IMG/VR virus record: IMGVR_UViG_2663763428_000010
Length of the DNA: 40,397 nt
Strand: one strand, 5' to 3'
Origin: a virus
Taxonomy: Duplodnaviria > Heunggongvirae > Uroviricota > Caudoviricetes
Shown here one piece after another: positions 2,796-33,748 of this stretch. Numbering within the stretch: the stretch's first letter is position 1; every line of letters starts with the position of its first letter. The notes under the pieces were generated by a model. The model was not told the origin of the DNA, ran no database searches, and saw only the letters and a program-made list of their open reading frames with translations. Position numbers and translations under genes: made by a program.

Positions 2796-3677
2796 TTACA
2801 TAGATGTTTCGTTTAATTCTTCCCGACGAACGCTGTAAACGTCGGTGGCTTTTGCCAGCAGTTCGTCATCATCTGAAAGTTTTTGTGCAATGTATTTGTA
2901 AGCCTTATCCAGTTCGGAGACAGTGCTGTAATTCATCGCTGCGCTGGTAAAGGCCATCAGCATTTCTTCTGGCTCACGGCTATCCGCTTTACGCGTTTGC
3001 TCATCAGGCTTTTTCACTGATTTAGCGTTGATCAGACTGTTCATTCCCGCAGCCGTAGTCATTTGCGGAGTAATGTCTCGCTCAACGCGCGGTGCCGTTT
3101 CCTGTAATTCGTCAGGGGTGTAAACACCGAGAAGTACATCAGGAGCGTGCAGGCGAGCCCATCGTTTCGTGCAAAGATAGGCAAGTTGCTGGCGCGGATC
3201 CTGTTCCCACAATGGAGAGTTACGCACTCCTGCTTGCGCCATACTGATGGTAAGCTCACGTGGTTCTGCTTCTCCTTTAAGAACTGCTGACACAGTTACC
3301 GTCAGATTCGGTGATTTATCTGTTTTGCCGTTAACATTCGACCAGTCACCGCTCCAGCGATAATTCAGGCGTGTCGCCAGCAGGCTGGAAGAGGATACGA
3401 CCGCGTTTACCAACTGTGCTTCGTAGCCTAACGTTCCGTTTACCACATGCGTTTTCTGCGCCACGGCGAAAGGGTTCATTCCCCACTGTGCCGCCTGCAT
3501 GGTCACCGCCAGGCAATCGGCAGGTTTGCCTTCAAGATGTTTCGGTACAGTCGCTTTGCTTTGTGACATCAACTCCGCGAAACGCACCAGTTGATTCATG
3601 CCCTCGGGGCTGAAGATTGCCGCAGCAGTGCCTACAGTTGCGCCTGGTTGTGATGTGATTGCGATATCATTGCTCAT
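2796..3677 (-). CDS. bet: Bet/RecT-superfamily single-strand annealing protein
   Basis: 293 aa; C-terminal ERDITP segment and overall layout resemble lambda Bet as recalled; sits directly downstream of the exonuclease with overlapping stop/start. Confidence 0.7.
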   Translation of the reverse strand: MSNDIAITSQPGATVGTAAAIFSPEGMNQLVRFAELMSQSKATVPKHLEGKPADCLAVTMQAAQWGMNPFAVAQKTHVVNGTLGYEAQLVNAVVSSSSLLATRLNYRWSGDWSNVNGKTDKSPNLTVTVSAVLKGEAEPRELTISMAQAGVRNSPLWEQDPRQQLAYLCTKRWARLHAPDVLLGVYTPDELQETAPRVERDITPQMTTAAGMNSLINAKSVKKPDEQTRKADSREPEEMLMAFTSAAMNYSTVSELDKAYKYIAQKLSDDDELLAKATDVYSVRREELNETSM

Positions 3678-4965: not shown

Positions 4966-5042
4966 TTACCGTTGAGGTAATAATTATTCGTATCTGGTTT
5001 GATGTCAATAGATATGAGTTAAAAAAATTACCCATTAGGTAA
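4966..5042 (-). promoter_or_regulatory. Leftward early promoter region with two operator palindromes (4966-4980 TTACCGTTGAGGTAA; 5028-5042 TTACCCATTAGGTAA)
   Basis: Two perfect TTACC-N5-GGTAA palindromes between the repressor terminator and the first leftward gene. Confidence 0.6.
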
Positions 5043-5099: not shown

Positions 5100-5684
5100 T
5101 TATTGTTTGTTTTTTTCGTTCTGGTTGATGACAAATTCAATGTAACTTTCGATCTTTGCTTTCTCGGTTTCGGGTAACAATGCGTAGCGCGAGCGATCAT
5201 AGTTGATGGTCGCAGGGTCGTGCGGGTGAATCAGTAATTCATAGCCGTGACGCCCGAATGCGGATGCAACATTCTCCAGGGTGGAAATGGAAACGCTGAC
5301 CTCATTGTTTAACAGGCGGCTGATTGTCACCTGGGCGACGCCGGATGCGCGGTGAAGTTTTCCCTGTGTTGAAAGGTCGCGGCTTTCGCTCATCCAGCGT
5401 TCCAGGTTGTGAGCCGCAAGCTGACCTATATCGCTCGGGCCGACAGGCTGAAAACCCTCCTGAGAAAGCGAACGATCAATATCAAGCCAGTTACGGGGTT
5501 TATTGGCGGCAGCTTCAATTTTTCGTGCAACCTGGTCGCCGATAACCTTCTTGCCAAGAGCCCAGCGGTTTACCAGATTTGCCTGAGTTCCAAGTTTTTC
5601 TGCCATCCGCGTCTGAACACCATTGAATTCACGGTCGATCAAGTCGTTGAGATTTTGCCTGCGGACGTCCTGGATACTTTTCAT
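5100..5684 (-). CDS. Prophage repressor, tandem HTH_XRE domains, no S24 peptidase domain
   Basis: 194 aa; two Cro/CI-type HTH-like segments; divergent from a Cro-like gene across an operator-rich intergenic region. Confidence 0.7.
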   Translation of the reverse strand: MKSIQDVRRQNLNDLIDREFNGVQTRMAEKLGTQANLVNRWALGKKVIGDQVARKIEAAANKPRNWLDIDRSLSQEGFQPVGPSDIGQLAAHNLERWMSESRDLSTQGKLHRASGVAQVTISRLLNNEVSVSISTLENVASAFGRHGYELLIHPHDPATINYDRSRYALLPETEKAKIESYIEFVINQNEKNKQ

Positions 5685-11822: not shown

Positions 11823-12418
11823 TGATGTCTGCTGAACCTAAAACCTATAAACGCAAATCAACGCAATTTAAGCCACTAACAGCAATGCAGGAGGCTTATT
11901 GCCAGTCATACATCAAAACGCCTGAAAACCAGACTCAGGCAGCGATTAACGCAGGATTCTCCCCAAATACAGCGGCAGTTAAAGCCAGTGTCATGATGCG
12001 CGATGAACGCATTCAAAAACGGATTGCCGAGTTGATGGAGGAGCGCAACAAACGAATGCGCGTCAGTGCTGATTACGTTCTCATGCGCCTGGTGGAGATC
12101 GACCAGATGGACGTGATCGACATCCTCAACGACGATGGGAGCCTTAAGCCAATCCGCGAGTGGCCGAAAATCTGGCGCACTACGCTTAGCGGCTTTGATC
12201 TGTCATCGACCATCATGAACATGAACGAGGATTCGATAGAGACAATCCTCAAAAAAATTAAATGGCCTGACAAGGTGAAGAACCTCGAACTGATTGGTAA
12301 GCACGTCGACGTCAACGCATTCAAAGAACGCCTGGATGTTAATGTGAATGTGACAATTGCTGATCGCATAGCAGCAGCCAGGAAGCGACTCAAAGAACGT
12401 CAGGATTGTAATCAGTGA
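11822..12418 (+). CDS. Terminase small subunit
   Basis: About 198 aa from ATG at 11822; position immediately upstream of large terminase; track ORF N-terminal extension crosses terminator and operators and is rejected. Confidence 0.65.
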   Translation: MMSAEPKTYKRKSTQFKPLTAMQEAYCQSYIKTPENQTQAAINAGFSPNTAAVKASVMMRDERIQKRIAELMEERNKRMRVSADYVLMRLVEIDQMDVIDILNDDGSLKPIREWPKIWRTTLSGFDLSSTIMNMNEDSIETILKKIKWPDKVKNLELIGKHVDVNAFKERLDVNVNVTIADRIAAARKRLKERQDCNQ

Positions 12419-13890
12419 CAGATACAGCGTTATCTCCTGAAGAGCAGTTGATCGAGGATATTGCAGGGTTCACTCACGATCCGCTTGGCTATGCCCTCTA
12501 TGCGTTCCCGTGGGGGGAAGAGGGGACTGAACTGGCACATGCTACCGGCCCACGTCAGTGGCAGGCTGATGCGTTCCGAGAGATACGTGATCACCTGCAG
12601 AATCCGGAGACGCGCTATCAGCCGCTTATGCTGGCACGCGCTTCTGGTCACGGTATTGGTAAATCCGCATTTATCTCAATGCTGATCAACTGGGGCATGT
12701 CCACTTGCGAGGATTGTAAGGTCGTGGTGACCGCCAACACCGACAACCAGCTACGAACGAAGACCTGGCCGGAAATTATCAAGTGGTCGAACCTTGCTAT
12801 CACGAAAGACTGGTTTACCTGTACCGCTACCGCGATGTACAGCAATGACCCTGGGCACGACAAGCGGTGGCGAGCTGACGCAATCCCCTGGTCTGAGCAC
12901 AACACTGAGGCATTCGCCGGACTACACAACGAGCGCAAACGCATCATCGTGGTATTCGATGAAGCGTCGAACATTGCGGATCTGGTGTGGGAAGTCGCTG
13001 AGGGTGCGCTTACGGACGAAGACACTGAGATTATTTGGGTGGCGTTCGGAAACCCGACGCGTAATACCGGACGTTTCCGCGAATGTTTCCGCAAATATAA
13101 ACACCGCTGGAAAACTGCGCAGATTGACAGCCGGACGGTGGAAGGCACCAACAAACAGCAGTTGCAGAAATGGGTTGATGACTACGGGGAAGACAGCGAC
13201 TTCGTTAAAATCCGTGTGCGCGGCATATTCCCTGATGCATCTGAATTGCAGTTTATCCCTACCGGTCTTACTGACGAGGCAATGAAACGGGTGGTAACTG
13301 CTGCGCAGGTGGCACATGCTCCGGTGATAATCGGCGTTGACCCTGCATACTCCGGTGTTGATGACGCGGTGATATACCTGCGGCAGGGGCTGCACAGTAA
13401 GGTGCTGTGGACCGGCAACAAGACCACTGACGATCTGATTATGGCAAAGCGTATCGCTGACTTTGAAGACCAGTATCAGGCTGACGCGGTGTTCATCGAC
13501 TTCGGTTACGGTACCGGGCTGAAGTCAATCGGTGACGGTTGGGGGCGCACATGGCAACTTGTTCCGTTCGGTGGCGCGTCTACTGACCCGCAGATGCTCA
13601 ACAAGCGTGGGGAGATGTTCAACTCATGCAAGACATGGCTGAGGCTGGGCGGCATGCTGGATGACCAGGAAACAGCGGACGACCTGTCGGCGGCAGAGTA
13701 CAAAGTTCGAGTGGACGGTAAAATCGTTATCGAACCGAAGGAAGATATCAAGGAGCGGCTTGGGCGTTCGCCGGGTAAAGGCGATGCGCTACTGCTGACG
13801 TTTGCGTTCCCTGTGTCTAAGCGTCTGCGAATTCCCGGGCAGCAGAACCAGCAAGGCAAGGCCATTACAGATTACGATCCCTATGCTTAA
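12415..13890 (+). CDS. Terminase large subunit
   Basis: 491 aa; Walker A-like GHGIGKS; nuclease-like C-terminal region; overlaps terS stop. Confidence 0.85.
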   Translation: MTDTALSPEEQLIEDIAGFTHDPLGYALYAFPWGEEGTELAHATGPRQWQADAFREIRDHLQNPETRYQPLMLARASGHGIGKSAFISMLINWGMSTCEDCKVVVTANTDNQLRTKTWPEIIKWSNLAITKDWFTCTATAMYSNDPGHDKRWRADAIPWSEHNTEAFAGLHNERKRIIVVFDEASNIADLVWEVAEGALTDEDTEIIWVAFGNPTRNTGRFRECFRKYKHRWKTAQIDSRTVEGTNKQQLQKWVDDYGEDSDFVKIRVRGIFPDASELQFIPTGLTDEAMKRVVTAAQVAHAPVIIGVDPAYSGVDDAVIYLRQGLHSKVLWTGNKTTDDLIMAKRIADFEDQYQADAVFIDFGYGTGLKSIGDGWGRTWQLVPFGGASTDPQMLNKRGEMFNSCKTWLRLGGMLDDQETADDLSAAEYKVRVDGKIVIEPKEDIKERLGRSPGKGDALLLTFAFPVSKRLRIPGQQNQQGKAITDYDPYA

Positions 13891-13932
13891 TCCGTTAGCG
13901 GGGATAATGACGGAGATATCCTCTGGTGAGGA

Positions 13933-13960
13933 TAAAACAAAGCCAGCTCATCGGCTGGCT
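13933..13960. terminator. Bidirectional rho-independent terminator between terminase and Gp49-like gene
   Basis: AGCCAGC-TCATCG-GCTGGCT hairpin flanked by A-tract upstream and GTTTGT downstream. Confidence 0.6.
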
Positions 13961-13964
13961 GTTT

Positions 13965-13976
13965 GTGACATGTCAC
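13965..13976. repeat. Exact 12-bp palindrome GTGACATGTCAC, copy 2 of 3
   Basis: Direct read; 4 nt from the stop codon of the Gp49-like gene and adjacent to the terminator hairpin. Confidence 0.9.
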
Positions 13977-13980
13977 GGTG

Positions 13981-14337
13981 TTATTGCTCGCTTAACTTCT
14001 GCTTCAGCAAGTAACCTTCAAGCATCCAGATTTTGTTTACAGCATTCTGCCGGGCAATCTTCCGACCAATTTCCGCATCAAAGTTTTCCGGGCTTGCACA
14101 GGCGCTCTCTCCGGTGACGGTGAAGCCGTTGCGCAGCACCAGAACGCAGAAAGTCAGGAGGTCTGTAGATTTATGCGCTGTCCATGAATCGCCAACGCCC
14201 ATATTGGCAGCACGAATGCCGTCATAAGCAGTAAAGAAATGCTCTTCAAGAATAATGCTTTCGATATATTGAGGCGTAACGCGCGGCGCGGCTAAACCTT
14301 TAGCCTGAATTTCAGATTCAATGTCTTTGTCACTCAT
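13981..14337 (-). CDS. N4 Gp49 / Sf6 Gp66-family protein (moron, function unknown)
   Basis: 118 aa minus-strand ORF inside an otherwise plus-strand late region; AAGGTGAG RBS; family assignment from recalled sequence pattern. Confidence 0.6.
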   Translation of the reverse strand: MSDKDIESEIQAKGLAAPRVTPQYIESIILEEHFFTAYDGIRAANMGVGDSWTAHKSTDLLTFCVLVLRNGFTVTGESACASPENFDAEIGRKIARQNAVNKIWMLEGYLLKQKLSEQ

Positions 14338-14353
14338 AGTCTAATCTCACCTT

Positions 14354-14377
14354 AAAAAAATGCCCGGCGAACCGGGC
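14354..14377 (-). terminator. Rho-independent terminator downstream of tRNA gene (minus strand)
   Basis: GCCCGG-TTCG-CCGGGC hairpin followed on the minus strand by U7; sits directly upstream of the Gp49-like gene RBS. Confidence 0.65.
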
Positions 14378-14540
14378 GAACTGGAAGCAATGAGTTATGC
14401 CTTCCGTGGCTGTACTGGTTTACAGCATGAAGTCATCGCAATGGCGTCCTGCTGTAAAAAGGGCGGTGATAGTCCTTCAAGGGAAACCATCACCGCCAAG
14501 CCCCTGGAACTTCTGGCATCACGGTCCTTAGGCGTGATTC

Positions 14541-14617
14541 TGGCGTGGCATGCAGGATTCGAACCTGCGACCAACCGCTTAGAAGGCGGTTGCTCTGTCC
14601 AACTGAGCTAATGCCAC
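14541..14617 (-). tRNA. tRNA-Arg, anticodon UCU (reads AGA)
   Basis: Reverse complement folds as full cloverleaf: acceptor GTGGCAT/ATGCCAC, D-arm GCTC...GAGC, anticodon stem ACCGC/GCGGT with loop CTTCTAA, T-arm GCAGG-TTCGAAT-CCTGC, discriminator G and encoded CCA. Confidence 0.85.
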
Positions 14618-14939
14618 AACGCTGAGAGCACTTAGCCTGTTAAGGCACCACACTTTGTCGCGGCTCCATAAATGCTCTCATCGTTGTACCCTCGCCTCTT
14701 CCGAGGCGTCACACCGAATCGCCGGGATGGTGAATCCCCGTGCGCGGAATAAAACCGCTCGACTTGCACATTCCGGCTACCTGGTTCGTTTGCCCGAGCA
14801 AGGGAGGGTGCCCCTTAAACGTATCCAGACCGCTATCGTCGCATGTGCCATACGCCGTACTGCTCAAAATAAAAGCTCACTCCACCTGTTCAATTTAACG
14901 ACAAGCCAGTCAGGTTAGTAACCGGAATGAACCCTTTAG

Positions 14940-14954
14940 TTACCTGAAGGGTAA
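14940..14954 (+). promoter_or_regulatory. Operator palindrome (TTACCTGAAGGGTAA) upstream of head gene operon
   Basis: TTACC-N5-GGTAA family member about 90 bp upstream of the ATG at 15045. Confidence 0.5.
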
Positions 14955-15044
14955 TAATTCGCGCGTTAAATGTCAACTGTCTACGATAAATAAATCATAT
15001 GTGGTTAAATTGGTAATGATTTAATTGCGTACGGAGTCATTGAT

Positions 15045-15251
15045 ATGTGCATGGGTAGCTCATCATCAGTGCCTGCAACACCAGAAGTTCAGGCAGCACC
15101 ACAGGAGCAGGATGCCGCCGTTGTTGATGCCCGCGACGAAGAAACTCGTCGCCGTCGCGCTGCTGCTGGTCGTAGTTCTACGCTGCTTACCGGTTCTCAG
15201 GGCGACACATCAACCGCTAATACCAGCGGTAAAACGCTGCTTGGTCAGTAA
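15045..15251 (+). CDS. Small hypothetical protein preceding portal (68 aa)
   Basis: GGAGTCATTGAT-ATG RBS context nearly identical to the portal RBS context. Confidence 0.45.
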   Translation: MCMGSSSSVPATPEVQAAPQEQDAAVVDARDEETRRRRAAAGRSSTLLTGSQGDTSTANTSGKTLLGQ

Positions 15252-15265
15252 CCGGAGTCATTGAA

Positions 15266-16945
15266 ATGGCGGAAACAACTAAAGAGCGATTGAACAAACA
15301 GTTCGCACAACTTGAAAGCGAGCGTCAGTCGTTCGAGCCGCACTGGCGCGAGTTGAGTGATTACATCAACCCGCGTGGTTCCCGCTTTCTGACTTCTGAG
15401 GTCAACCGTAACGATCGACGCAATACACGCATTATTGATTCGACCGGGACTATGGCGGCGCGCACTCTCGCCAGCGGCATGATGTCAGGCATCACAAGCC
15501 CCGCGCGTCCGTGGTTTCGCCTGGCTACGCCAGATCCTGAAATGATGGATTATGGCCCTGTTAAGTTGTGGCTTGAGGCGGTGCAGAACCGCATGAACGA
15601 TATGTTCAATAAGTCGAATCTCTATCAGTCGCTGCCGCAGTTATACGGAAGCCTCGGCACATACAGCACTGGTGCAATGGCAGTGCTGGAAGATGACGAG
15701 GACATCATTCGCACAATGCCATTCCCGATAGGCAGTTACTACCTGGCTAACTCACCTCGTGGCAGTGTGGACACCTGTTTTCGCAAGTTCGCTATGACTG
15801 TTCGTCAGCTTGTTCAGGAGTTCGGGCTAAATAACGTCAGCGAATCCGTAAAAAGCATGTGGGAAAGCGGCACCTACGAGAAGTGGATTGAAGTGATGCA
15901 TTCGGTTTACCCGAACATTGACCGCGATACATCGAAGCTGGATAGCAAGAACAAGCCATTCAAATCGGTTTATTACGAGGTTGGTGGCGATAACGACAAG
16001 TTGTTGCGTGAGTCCGGATTCGATGAGTTTCCAATTATGGCTCCGCGCTGGGAAGTTAACGGCGAAGATGTTTATGGATCATCATGCCCGGGTATGCTGG
16101 CGCTTGGACCTGTTAAGGCATTGCAGCTTCTTCAGAAGCGCAAGTCGCAGTTGATTGATAAAGCCACCAATCCGCCGATGGTTGCTCCGACTTCCCTCAA
16201 GAATCAGCGTGCCTCCCTTCTTCCTGGCGACATCACGTATATCGATCAGATTACTGGTCAGGATGGTTTCAGGCCTGCTTATCTGGTTAACCCCAGTACA
16301 GCAGATCTGGTAGCAGACATTCAGGACACTCGGCAAATCATTAACAGCGCCTACTTTGTCGATCTGTTCATGATGTTGCAGAACATCAATACCCGCTCGA
16401 TGCCTGTTGAAGCGGTGATCGAAATGAAAGAAGAAAAACTTCTGATGTTGGGGCCGGTTCTGGAGCGTCTGAACGACGAATGTCTTAATCCTCTCATTGA
16501 CCGCGCTTTCTCGATGATGGTGCGTAAAAACATGCTGCCGCCACCGCCTGACGCGATGGAAGGTATGCCCCTGAAGGTCGAATACATTTCCGTCATGGCT
16601 CAGGCGCAGAAGTCTATCGGCCTGTCCAGTCTGGCATCCACGGTCAACTTCATTGGTCAACTTGCGCAAGCGAAACCAGAAGCTCTCGACAAACTCAACG
16701 TTGATCAGGCGATCGATGCATTCGCTGATATGTCCGGAGTGTCTCCAACCGTCATTGTTCCGCAGGAACAGGTTGAGCAGGCTCGCCAGCAACGGGCACA
16801 GCAACAACAGCAGCAACAAATGATGGCGATGGGGATGGCGGCGGCACAGGGGGCCAAGACGCTAAGCGAAGCTAAAACTTCGGATCCGAGTGTGTTGTCA
16901 GCTATGGCGAATGCAGTTAGTGGTCAGGGTGGGCAATCACAATGA
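15266..16945 (+). CDS. Portal protein, T7 gp8-like head-to-tail connector
   Basis: 559 aa; size, position after terminase and poly-Q/acidic C-terminal tail; family call by recalled similarity. Confidence 0.8.
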   Translation: MAETTKERLNKQFAQLESERQSFEPHWRELSDYINPRGSRFLTSEVNRNDRRNTRIIDSTGTMAARTLASGMMSGITSPARPWFRLATPDPEMMDYGPVKLWLEAVQNRMNDMFNKSNLYQSLPQLYGSLGTYSTGAMAVLEDDEDIIRTMPFPIGSYYLANSPRGSVDTCFRKFAMTVRQLVQEFGLNNVSESVKSMWESGTYEKWIEVMHSVYPNIDRDTSKLDSKNKPFKSVYYEVGGDNDKLLRESGFDEFPIMAPRWEVNGEDVYGSSCPGMLALGPVKALQLLQKRKSQLIDKATNPPMVAPTSLKNQRASLLPGDITYIDQITGQDGFRPAYLVNPSTADLVADIQDTRQIINSAYFVDLFMMLQNINTRSMPVEAVIEMKEEKLLMLGPVLERLNDECLNPLIDRAFSMMVRKNMLPPPPDAMEGMPLKVEYISVMAQAQKSIGLSSLASTVNFIGQLAQAKPEALDKLNVDQAIDAFADMSGVSPTVIVPQEQVEQARQQRAQQQQQQQMMAMGMAAAQGAKTLSEAKTSDPSVLSAMANAVSGQGGQSQ

Positions 16946-33464: not shown

Positions 33465-33733
33465 GGTGGTTATCTCCACTTAGTGATTTTAATCACCACC
33501 GCAACGCCAATTACTGGTGGTGAACTGGACAAGGTTGGCGTACCGGCCTAAGTGGTACCGGTGTCCTTTCGGACCCCTGCCCAGCCCACCATAATTCGGA
33601 TATAGCTGTGCTTAACGCATAAAAAAACCACGTCTGGCGTGGTATGCGCCACTTAGTAACCCGGGACGCCAATCCCGGCACTGGATTTTGCCAGTGCCCG
33701 ATTACTATGGCACAAGAGGAGTGCGATGTAAAT

Positions 33734-33748
33734 TTACCGCAAAGGTAA
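33734..33748 (-). promoter_or_regulatory. Operator palindrome (TTACCGCAAAGGTAA) upstream of antirepressor gene
   Basis: Perfect TTACC-N5-GGTAA in the long leader upstream of the Bro-N gene. Confidence 0.5.

Follow-up and report, generated by a model that had tools for sequence, protein, structure and literature searches.

A terminator-ribosome-binding-site junction as a conserved cargo slot in phiV10/epsilon15-like prophages

We describe a short set of genes and RNA elements that runs against the direction of the late genes in a prophage of Escherichia coli. The stretch of DNA analysed (40,397 nt, from a virus of the Caudoviricetes, IMG/VR record IMGVR_UViG_2663763428_000010; hereafter the window) carries, between terL and the gp3 and portal genes, a tRNA-Arg(UCU) gene and a 'Gp49'-type gene of the Acb4 family, here called acb4. 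All coordinates are positions in the window, and (-) denotes the strand opposite to the terL, gp3 and portal late genes. The arrangement is best explained as a self-contained accessory transcription unit on (-). At its centre the U-tract of an intrinsic terminator, T2, touches the Shine-Dalgarno (SD) sequence of acb4. Comparison with relatives indicates that this terminator-on-ribosome-binding-site junction is a conserved design, a plug-in slot in which the cargo gene is exchanged at the start codon. The parts of the unit, in the order in which they would be transcribed, are as follows.

14971-14976, (-): -35 hexamer TTGACA of the predicted promoter P(-); spacing to the operator kept across loci
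14940-14954, both strands: predicted operator TTACC-N5-GGTAA of the repressor Rep; motif enrichment and epsilon15 annotation
14687-14860, (-): structured leader RNA of about 170 nt; covariation, 136.7 bits with covariance model CM R1
14616-14688, (-): long hairpin at the 5' end of the tRNA; -37.4 kcal/mol, z=-5.4
14541-14617, (-): tRNA-Arg(UCU) with encoded CCA; ARAGORN, Rfam RF00005
14456-14497, (-): T1, a terminator-like 14-bp hairpin followed by CU5; terminator scan, -22.8 kcal/mol, z=-5.2
14378-14455, (-): T1-T2 spacer; conservation across genera
14354-14377, (-): terminator T2, GCCCGG-UUCG-CCGGGC followed by A and U7; scan, folding, compensatory stem changes
14347-14353, (-): SD sequence AAGGTGA, adjoining the U-tract of T2; read from the sequence
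13981-14337, (-): acb4-family gene (PF13876, 'Gp49'), 118 aa; Pfam match
13941-13960, both strands: bidirectional terminator T3; scan, -12.1 kcal/mol, z=-4.2

Across 13700-15300, identity reaches 100% with the chromosome of E. coli WCHEC005784 and 95.5% with phage phiV10. The RefSeq gene order in the E. coli match (terminase, "Gp49 family protein" (-), tRNA-Arg (-), a small hypothetical protein, portal) agrees with that of the window, which we therefore assign to a phiV10/epsilon15-like (Uetakevirus) prophage. The tRNA and Gp49-type genes are both antisense to terL (12415-13890, +), gp3 (start 15045, +) and the portal gene (start 15266, +), as had been noted in a first reading of the window made from its letters (the original prediction).

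The terminator adjoining the Shine-Dalgarno sequence

T2 consists of the hairpin GCCCGG-UUCG-CCGGGC (14377-14362), with six G-C pairs, followed by an A and U7 (14360-14354), and folds with -12.7 kcal/mol (z=-3.1). The sequence AAGGTGA (14353-14347) directly follows the U-tract, and the ATG at 14337 lies nine bases further on. Only U7 therefore separates the A after the stem from the SD sequence, which bears out the claim that a strong terminator abuts the ribosome-binding site of the Gp49-type gene. Read on the + strand, T2 lacks a U-tract. A consensus terminator scan by itself does not rise above chance (4 found vs 2.3 +/- 1.3 expected), so the case for T2 is built on conservation with compensatory changes. 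The stem variants are all complementary (GG/CC in 28 loci, AC/GU in 11, GC/GC in 2), the loop is usually UUCG, and the GenBank record of epsilon15 annotates the homologous hairpin as a rho-independent terminator. These comparisons indicate that T2 is an intrinsic terminator whose structure is maintained by selection.

Two further terminators had been overlooked in the original prediction. T1 (hairpin 14497-14462 plus CU5) lies between the tRNA gene and T2, in tandem with T2, and is the stronger of the two. T3 lies between the convergent acb4 and terL genes and is an annotated terminator in the phiV10 record. T1 is conserved in relatives that have no tRNA gene. Both T1 and T2 are kept in the tRNA-less loci L009-L017, L030 and L037 (L numbers denote loci of our collection), and T2 is kept in epsilon15. 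T2 is thus not the terminator of the tRNA, as it had been described; since both hairpins are present in relatives without the tRNA, we regard T1 and T2 as features of the backbone, T2 belonging to the junction of backbone and cargo.

The T1-T2 spacer contains a stem-loop, GGAAGGCA..UUGCUUCC, and the motif CCAGUU, which are conserved across genera; the fold of the spacer is no better than that of shuffled sequences (z=-1.1). No promoter-like site was found between T1 and the ATG, either by consensus scan or by inspection of the hexamers in aligned relatives. The statement that there is no room for a conventional promoter holds for sigma-70-like sites from T2, and indeed from T1, to the ATG, and because no such promoter fits there, terminator read-through would be the most economical route to acb4 expression. 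No antiterminator pairing that covaries with the arms of T2 was seen in the aligned upstream sequence.

Two small open reading frames (ORFs) lie in this region. One in the T1-T2 spacer (MTLRCKP...) was rejected, as its frame is not open in either the window or phiV10. The other, an 83-aa ORF at 14360-14611 (+), runs antisense to the tRNA, covers T2, and is annotated as a coding sequence in phiV10 (p04), TL-2011b (gp24) and EC.W1-9. This annotation is probably a mistake.

An exchangeable cargo slot

A TerL-based scan with one genome per species gave 14 enterobacterial prophages with a terL-gp3 slot; the slot relatives together with IMG/VR contigs make up 48 operator-type loci. T2 is present in 41 of the 48 loci, and T1 and T2 are kept in most of the 14 enterobacterial prophages, all tRNA-less. 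The junction T2-U7-AAGGTGA-N5-9-ATG is kept, with compensatory changes in the stem, in phiV10/epsilon15-like prophages of many genera (Klebsiella, Erwinia, Scandinavium, Pseudocitrobacter, Citrobacter, Superficieibacter and Pseudescherichia). In epsilon15, which has no tRNA, T2 carries two compensatory pairs (GCCCAC/GUGGGC) and an identical U7-AAGGTGA junction leads into the Gp49-like gene gp50. The slot of phiv142-3 is empty: T2 and AAGGTG...ATG are still there and are followed by an ORF of eight codons. In TL-2011b and EC.W1-9 homology ends exactly past the U-tract; the genes found there are different ones, which bring 108 and 63 nt of upstream sequence of their own.

At least ten unrelated cargo families start 11-16 nt past the U-tract, behind an SD sequence of the AAGGTGA type. 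They include the following.

Gp49/PF13876 (Acb4): 9 loci
139-aa protein: 9 loci
membrane protein of PHROG 11227: 3 loci
173-aa protein with a Tad2-like domain (PF11195, E=4.2e-26): 3 loci (L132, L143 and L155, all IMG/VR contigs)
HNH endonuclease, and several proteins with no assigned function

Pfam and PHROG annotation assigned the remaining cargo mostly to unknown function; families of this kind encode proteins of 139, 110, 86, 143 and 201 aa. The parts, their conservation and the exchange of cargo are directly observed in the aligned loci. Since the same junction precedes at least ten families of cargo ORF, it is not an accident of one insertion, and the chance juxtaposition of terminator and ribosome-binding site implied by the original prediction gives way to a hairpin-U7-SD-ATG arrangement that has been reused many times. 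Acb4 and the Tad2-like protein occupy the same socket, and for this reason the slot is, as judged from its occupants, best described as a site for anti-defence cargo.

Some cargo genes have further peculiarities. The Tad2-like domain forms the C-terminal part of the 173-aa protein, which is encoded by the first ORF after T2 and has an unassigned N-terminal domain. The 86-aa cargo of L091 shares the motif GY..Y..GY.S.SP..FE..Y with that N-terminal part. A 201-aa cargo family carries its own TTACC-N5-GGTAA site between T2 and the ATG (L006 1642-1656; also L056, L080, L149, L165 and L173), and because of this site it appears to have a separate Rep-controlled promoter.

The acb4-family gene

The ORF at 13981-14337 (-) encodes 118 aa and matches PF13876 (N4 Gp49/Sf6 gene 66) over the whole profile (1-82 of 82) with E=1.5e-34 and 118.8 bits (gathering score 27). 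It was correctly called Gp49-like. The PF13876 family corresponds to Acb4, a sponge that counters cyclic-oligonucleotide-based antiphage signalling systems (CBASS) (Chang et al., bioRxiv 10.1101/2024.12.30.630793). Acb4 of Bacillus phage SPO1 is a tetrameric sponge for 3'3'-cyclic GMP-AMP (3'3'-cGAMP) and related CBASS signals, and 8 of 8 further homologues tested also bound 3'3'-cGAMP (10.1101/2024.12.30.630793). A second paper likewise uses PF13876 to define Acb4, and PF11195 to define Tad2. The label 'moron' given earlier to the window gene is not supported: the promoter that a moron would carry is missing from the stretch between T1 and the ATG, and the family of the gene is that of an anti-CBASS sponge.

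The window protein aligns pairwise with anti-CBASS 4 (PDB 9E4W) over 44 residues (60-103; E=0.0039). The ENFxxEIGR segment and the stacking phenylalanine (F72 here, F48 in SPO1) are conserved in this alignment. Equivalents of F48, F62 and I66 are conserved, and those of K36, E49, Y57 and T70 are not; the guanine-reading residues K36 and E49 of SPO1 Acb4 are replaced by L60 and T73. Relative to SPO1 Acb4 the window protein has an N-terminal extension and a hypervariable loop. Values of dN/dS against the phiV10, epsilon15 and Klebsiella orthologues range from 0.09 to 0.39 around the hypervariable loop, which indicates that acb4 is under purifying selection. The 118-aa protein presumably binds a ligand too.

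A predicted repressor-controlled promoter

Upstream of the unit, TTGAC is found exactly 16 nt upstream of an operator-like motif in 46 of the 48 loci, with a spacer that varies in sequence; in the window this is a perfect TTGACA on (-). The sole promoter-like match that a consensus scan gave on (-), TAGACA-18-AATTAT (14983-14954), overlaps this hexamer. The operator motif, TTACC-N5-GGTAA, occurs at 10 exact sites in the window (15 with one mismatch or fewer) vs 0.57 expected, and lies at positions 4966, 5028, 5740, 5788, 6125, 8071, 8133, 11790, 14940, 32667, 33734, 33827 and 34947. The sites at 4966, 5028, 5740 and 5788 flank a gene (5100-5684, -) whose product, Rep, is homologous to the SPC32H repressor (PDB 5D50, E=4e-42). 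In the GenBank record of epsilon15, sequences of the form ATTACC-N5-GGTAAT are marked as 'repressor' sites; one of these lies upstream of gp3 and is homologous to the 14940-14954 site, and the sites around the Rep gene likewise correspond to annotated epsilon15 sites. On the strength of this GenBank annotation and the motif statistics, the TTACC-N5-GGTAA sites are predicted to be Rep operators of the SPC32H/epsilon15 type. We infer promoter activity and Rep control for the region 14971-14940, and predict there a promoter, P(-), with a weak -10 element (TACCYT) inside the operator.

The operator motif is scattered over the whole prophage, including positions upstream of terS and of the tailspike gene, which suggests that Rep may directly control many operons. 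Two other observations concern the surroundings of these sites. A block, AAATAAATCATATGTGGTTAAATTGGTAATGATTT, at 14985-15022 (+) upstream of gp3 shows almost no variation across all the enterobacterial relatives and is a candidate extended -10 promoter or 5' untranslated element for gp3 and portal. At 33513-33697 (-) a C4 antisense RNA (63.6 bits) lies beside isrK (67.7 bits), with Rep operator motifs at 33734 and 33827; the region looks like an antirepressor control region of the P1 immI or Gifsy isrK type.

A widespread structured leader RNA

The non-coding block between P(-) and the tRNA gene is highly conserved among relatives. An alignment of 26 diverse copies (A1) supports a leader RNA with seven helices, including an H-type pseudoknot. 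In A1 97.2% of the cells are paired, whereas shuffles reach 88.7%. Compensatory changes occur in 13 pairs, and covariation scores 0.276 vs 0.117 (0.03-0.08 in controls with slid partners). Because some of its G-U pairs are invariant, the RNA can be placed on the strand of the tRNA and acb4. The covariance model CM R1 finds one copy per genome, in the window at 14687-14860, and no second copy in the window or its relatives. Rfam 15 holds no family for it.

The leader RNA is present in at least 120 viral contigs (pattern scan), in 83 phage records by BLAST (among them P1, P7, D6, SJ46, Stx2 phages, cdtI and mEp460) and in 1833 of 5426 complete E. coli genomes (34%), in none of which it is annotated. 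Its context differs between groups. In Uetakeviruses it lies downstream of the Rep operator. In lambdoid prophages that lack an annotated N gene it is found 0-60 nt past PL-like promoters, immediately downstream of cI and the cI terminator. In P1 (NC_005856 71021-71200; 140.9 bits) it is flanked by trnI and ban, within the ban operon under C1 control. The RNA was also located in L178 at 2999-3171. Literature searches with sequence strings of the leader RNA and for RNAs of the P1 ban region gave nothing relevant. The RNA is well supported by alignment and covariation, and is very common and unnamed in temperate coliphages.

In epsilon15 (L003/L008 2580-2730) about 335 bp are deleted between two copies of GTTYCCCTTGATGCT. 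The deletion took the leader RNA and the tRNA position and left an RNA remnant of 29.6 bits.

The tRNA gene

The only tRNA that ARAGORN calls in the window is a tRNA-Arg (anticodon tct) at 14541-14617 (-). Rfam RF00005 matches it over its full length (1-71) with 73.3 bits and E=2.5e-14 (gathering score 29), and the 3' CCA is encoded in the DNA. The tRNA that had been predicted is therefore genuine. It is found in 28 of the 48 operator-type loci, as Arg(tct) every time, and in none (0/14) of the terL-gp3 slots of the enterobacterial prophages. Since T1 and T2 stay in tRNA-less relatives and only 28 of the 48 loci have the tRNA, its distribution argues that it is a later, patchy insert.

AGA occurs 6.4 times per 1000 codons in the window (8.3 in early and accessory ORFs, 4.25 in the late block, for our ORF set) and AGG 4.4 times; tRNA-less epsilon15 has 4.2 AGA per 1000. 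E. coli averages are near 2 for AGA and near 1 for AGG per 1000 codons, and AGA use in the prophage is about three times what we take to be the host value. Because AGA use is raised against both epsilon15 and E. coli, it is plausible that the tRNA supplements AGA decoding.

The hairpin at 14616-14688 (-) abuts the 5' end of the tRNA, and an equivalent is found after the leader RNA in relatives as well as in some lambdoid loci. It is likely a processing site, with RNase III as a candidate enzyme. Its 3' arm (14622-14640, -; equivalents in L009, L012 and L030) reads AGUGCUCUYNNCGUUGUGG, which we take to resemble in part the boxA core, UGCUCUUU. In L009, L011, L012, L016 and L017 larger folded domains occupy the position of the window's tRNA, between the long hairpin and T1. 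They are closed in tRNA-less relatives by GUGGUG...CACCAC plus ACAACCCA, and some contain T-arm-like GGTTCGAnTCC hairpins. ARAGORN called no tRNA in the domains of these five loci.

Proposed mechanism and alternatives

Our preferred reading, which we hold with modest confidence, is that the unit serves early counter-defence and that its cargo is expressed by terminator read-through. The order of parts would be P(-), with its -10 element overlapping the operator, then the leader RNA, the hairpin, the tRNA, T1 and T2, acb4 and T3. In a lysogen the unit would be silent because Rep sits on the operator. Upon infection or induction it would be switched on immediately, when a counter-defence protein is needed. 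The tRNA would be excised from the P(-) precursor and supply an AGA decoder. T1 and T2 would terminate the transcripts partially, so that acb4 is translated only from the fraction that reads through, and T3 would keep transcription of the unit out of terL and late transcription out of the unit. We infer both the read-through and the timing.

Several points weigh against this reading. The -10 element of P(-) is weak (TACCCT), and P(-) is itself a prediction. Two strong terminators in tandem should leave little read-through, which fits poorly with a sponge that acts stoichiometrically; since such a protein would be needed in abundance, some form of active antitermination may be missing from the model. 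The operator could serve a + strand promoter of gp3 instead or as well, as the annotators of epsilon15 seemingly assumed. The E. coli codon frequencies used for reference are approximate background values.

An alternative supplies the missing antitermination. The leader RNA could act as a processive antiterminator that modifies RNA polymerase or blocks Rho, like HK022 put, in which case only transcripts started at P(-) would pass T1 and T2, and T2 would insulate the cargo from other transcription. The RNA is real and sense-oriented, and it is promoter-proximal in two independent groups of phages (Uetakeviruses, and lambdoid prophages without an annotated N gene). T2 is present in 9 of 9 species-level relatives with the leader RNA vs 2 of 5 without, the cargo is promoterless behind strong terminators, and no Q- or N-like Pfam domain was found in the early ORFs tested, a check that was not exhaustive. 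However, the RNA has no similarity to put in sequence or structure, CM R1 is negative on HK022, and its length of about 170 nt compares with about 70 nt for put. In P1 it comes after a T2-like terminator and immediately precedes ban, from which no terminator separates it; for most lambdoid copies no intrinsic terminator could be detected in roughly the next 1 kb; L018 has the T2-SD-ATG junction without the RNA; and one copy per genome leaves nothing equivalent for the rightward operon. Because of the order in P1, the scarcity of lambdoid terminators and the L018 socket, we consider antitermination unlikely, and give the same low weight to the wider proposal that the RNA represents a new cis-acting class, a functional analogue of put, that would make transcription from repressor-controlled early promoters resistant to termination. 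If it were true, the RNA would explain the expression of promoterless anti-defence cargo behind T1 and T2, and also how some N-less lambdoid phages read their leftward operon.

Still less probable is that T1 and T2 chiefly define small RNAs, derived from the 3' trailer of the tRNA or from the leader in the manner of DicF or 3'ETS-derived RNAs, with the cargo expressed by incidental leak-through like dicB downstream of dicF. The spacer and its CCAGUU-hairpin-U7 module are conserved, a homologous module ends the 'dicF-like region' of P1 just past Pban, and T1 resembles what we take to be the DicF terminator. Against this, the Rfam DicF model (RF00039) gives no match in 13900-15100 even at E<=5, the consensus scan finds no promoter for a spacer RNA, and the spacer does not fold better than shuffles. 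Small RNAs would also leave unexplained why an SD sequence and an ATG belong to the conserved block and why the cargo is swapped precisely at the ATG. DicF or another known small RNA was rejected as an identity for the T1/T2 region because Rfam gave no match.

The 'unusual promoter' considered in the original prediction, a cryptic or non-sigma-70 promoter at T2 or in the spacer that drives acb4 independently, is very unlikely. A conserved TTTACA overlaps the U-tract of T1 and a TTGCGA lies in the spacer, but neither hexamer has a usable -10 element at 16-18 nt in any aligned relative, and the consensus scan finds none. Between T2 and the spacer to the ATG there are only U7 and a 7-nt SD sequence. 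The upstream sequence is shared across cargo, yet two cargo types import upstream regions of 35-108 nt of their own.

We give least credence to the view that the tRNA belongs to the counter-defence cargo, standing in as decoy or substitute for host tRNA-Arg cut by an anticodon nuclease rather than as a codon supplement: it shares an early unit with anti-defence cargo (Acb4, Tad2-like), is patchy like an accessory gene (28/48 loci) and occupies a position where tRNA-less relatives have other tRNA-like folds, but the AGA frequencies of window and epsilon15 fit supplementation, no Arg(UCU)-specific nuclease was identified in this analysis and the anticodon loop shows no peculiarity.

Comparison with known systems

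The closest counterparts are epsilon15 gp50 and phiV10 gp03 (NC_004775, NC_007804), which are orthologous to the window gene and also lie on (-) between terL and gp3. The epsilon15 record annotates a rho-independent terminator upstream of gp50 and a repressor site upstream of gp3; the phage differs in having lost the tRNA and leader RNA by deletion. In the phiV10 RefSeq record the tRNA is unannotated and an antisense coding sequence is annotated over it. In neither record is the gene connected with Acb4 or the junction presented as a slot for cargo. SPO1 Acb4 (9E4W) shares with the window protein the PF13876 match, the ENFxxEIGR segment and the stacking phenylalanine. The two differ in that only 44 residues align, K36 and E49 are exchanged for L60 and T73, and the window protein has the N-terminal extension and the hypervariable loop.

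The ban operon of P1 comprises the C1-controlled promoter Pban, a dicF-like region, trnA, trnT, the tci genes, trnI and ban. It resembles the unit described here, as we reconstruct it, in combining tRNA genes with accessory genes and non-coding modules in one early operon under a repressor, and it contains both the leader RNA and a T2-like module of CCAGUU, a UUCG hairpin and a U-tract. In P1 the parts are arranged differently, with the T2-like module at the front and the RNA placed after trnI and before ban, and the cargo there encodes a DnaB-like helicase instead of an anti-defence sponge. The P1 'dicF-like region' just past Pban (L177 769-870, NC_005856 68791-68892) ends in the module homologous to T2/CCAGUU, GCTTCCAGTTTGCCCATCTTCGGGTGGGCGTTTTTT; this module, upstream of the P1 leader RNA, has the form GCTTCCAGTT-hairpin-U6.

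HK022 put is a V-shaped RNA of two stems and about 70 nt. In the window the leader RNA takes a place like that of the put and lambda nut sites, shortly after a predicted repressor-controlled early promoter and ahead of genes that lie behind terminators. The leader RNA is not homologous to put, and it has seven helices with a pseudoknot and a single copy per genome. Its put-like, promoter-proximal position is seen in the Uetakevirus and lambdoid PL contexts and not in P1, and downstream terminators are rare in the lambdoid copies.

A classical phage moron, as conceived for HK97 and HK022, consists of a promoter, a gene and a terminator and is expressed from the prophage. The acb4 gene shares with morons its character as an extra, exchangeable gene of the late region and has a terminator downstream (T3). 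It differs in lacking a promoter of its own, in being predicted to be repressed in the lysogen, and in having the start codon as its exchange boundary. In dicF-dicB of the Qin prophage an intrinsic terminator lies just upstream of a gene that is expressed through read-through or processing of a long repressor-controlled transcript. Both systems thus place a terminator immediately upstream of a gene that is expressed nevertheless; here, however, Rfam finds no DicF, the U-tract touches the SD sequence, and the arrangement is reused for many cargo genes.

The reuse of the socket for Acb4, a Tad2-like protein and several unknowns points to a compact hot spot of anti-defence genes in a prophage family that is common in enterobacteria, and the remaining occupants are therefore a small set of candidates for new counter-defence proteins. 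The arrangement poses a testable question, namely how a gene directly behind a strong terminator is expressed, and the leader RNA is present in the model phage P1 as well. Set against these systems, the phage tRNA-Arg, the Acb4-family gene and the terminator annotated in epsilon15 are of kinds already known; new are the terminator-ribosome-binding-site cargo socket with its anti-defence genes, its predicted control by the repressor, and the common, unnamed leader RNA.

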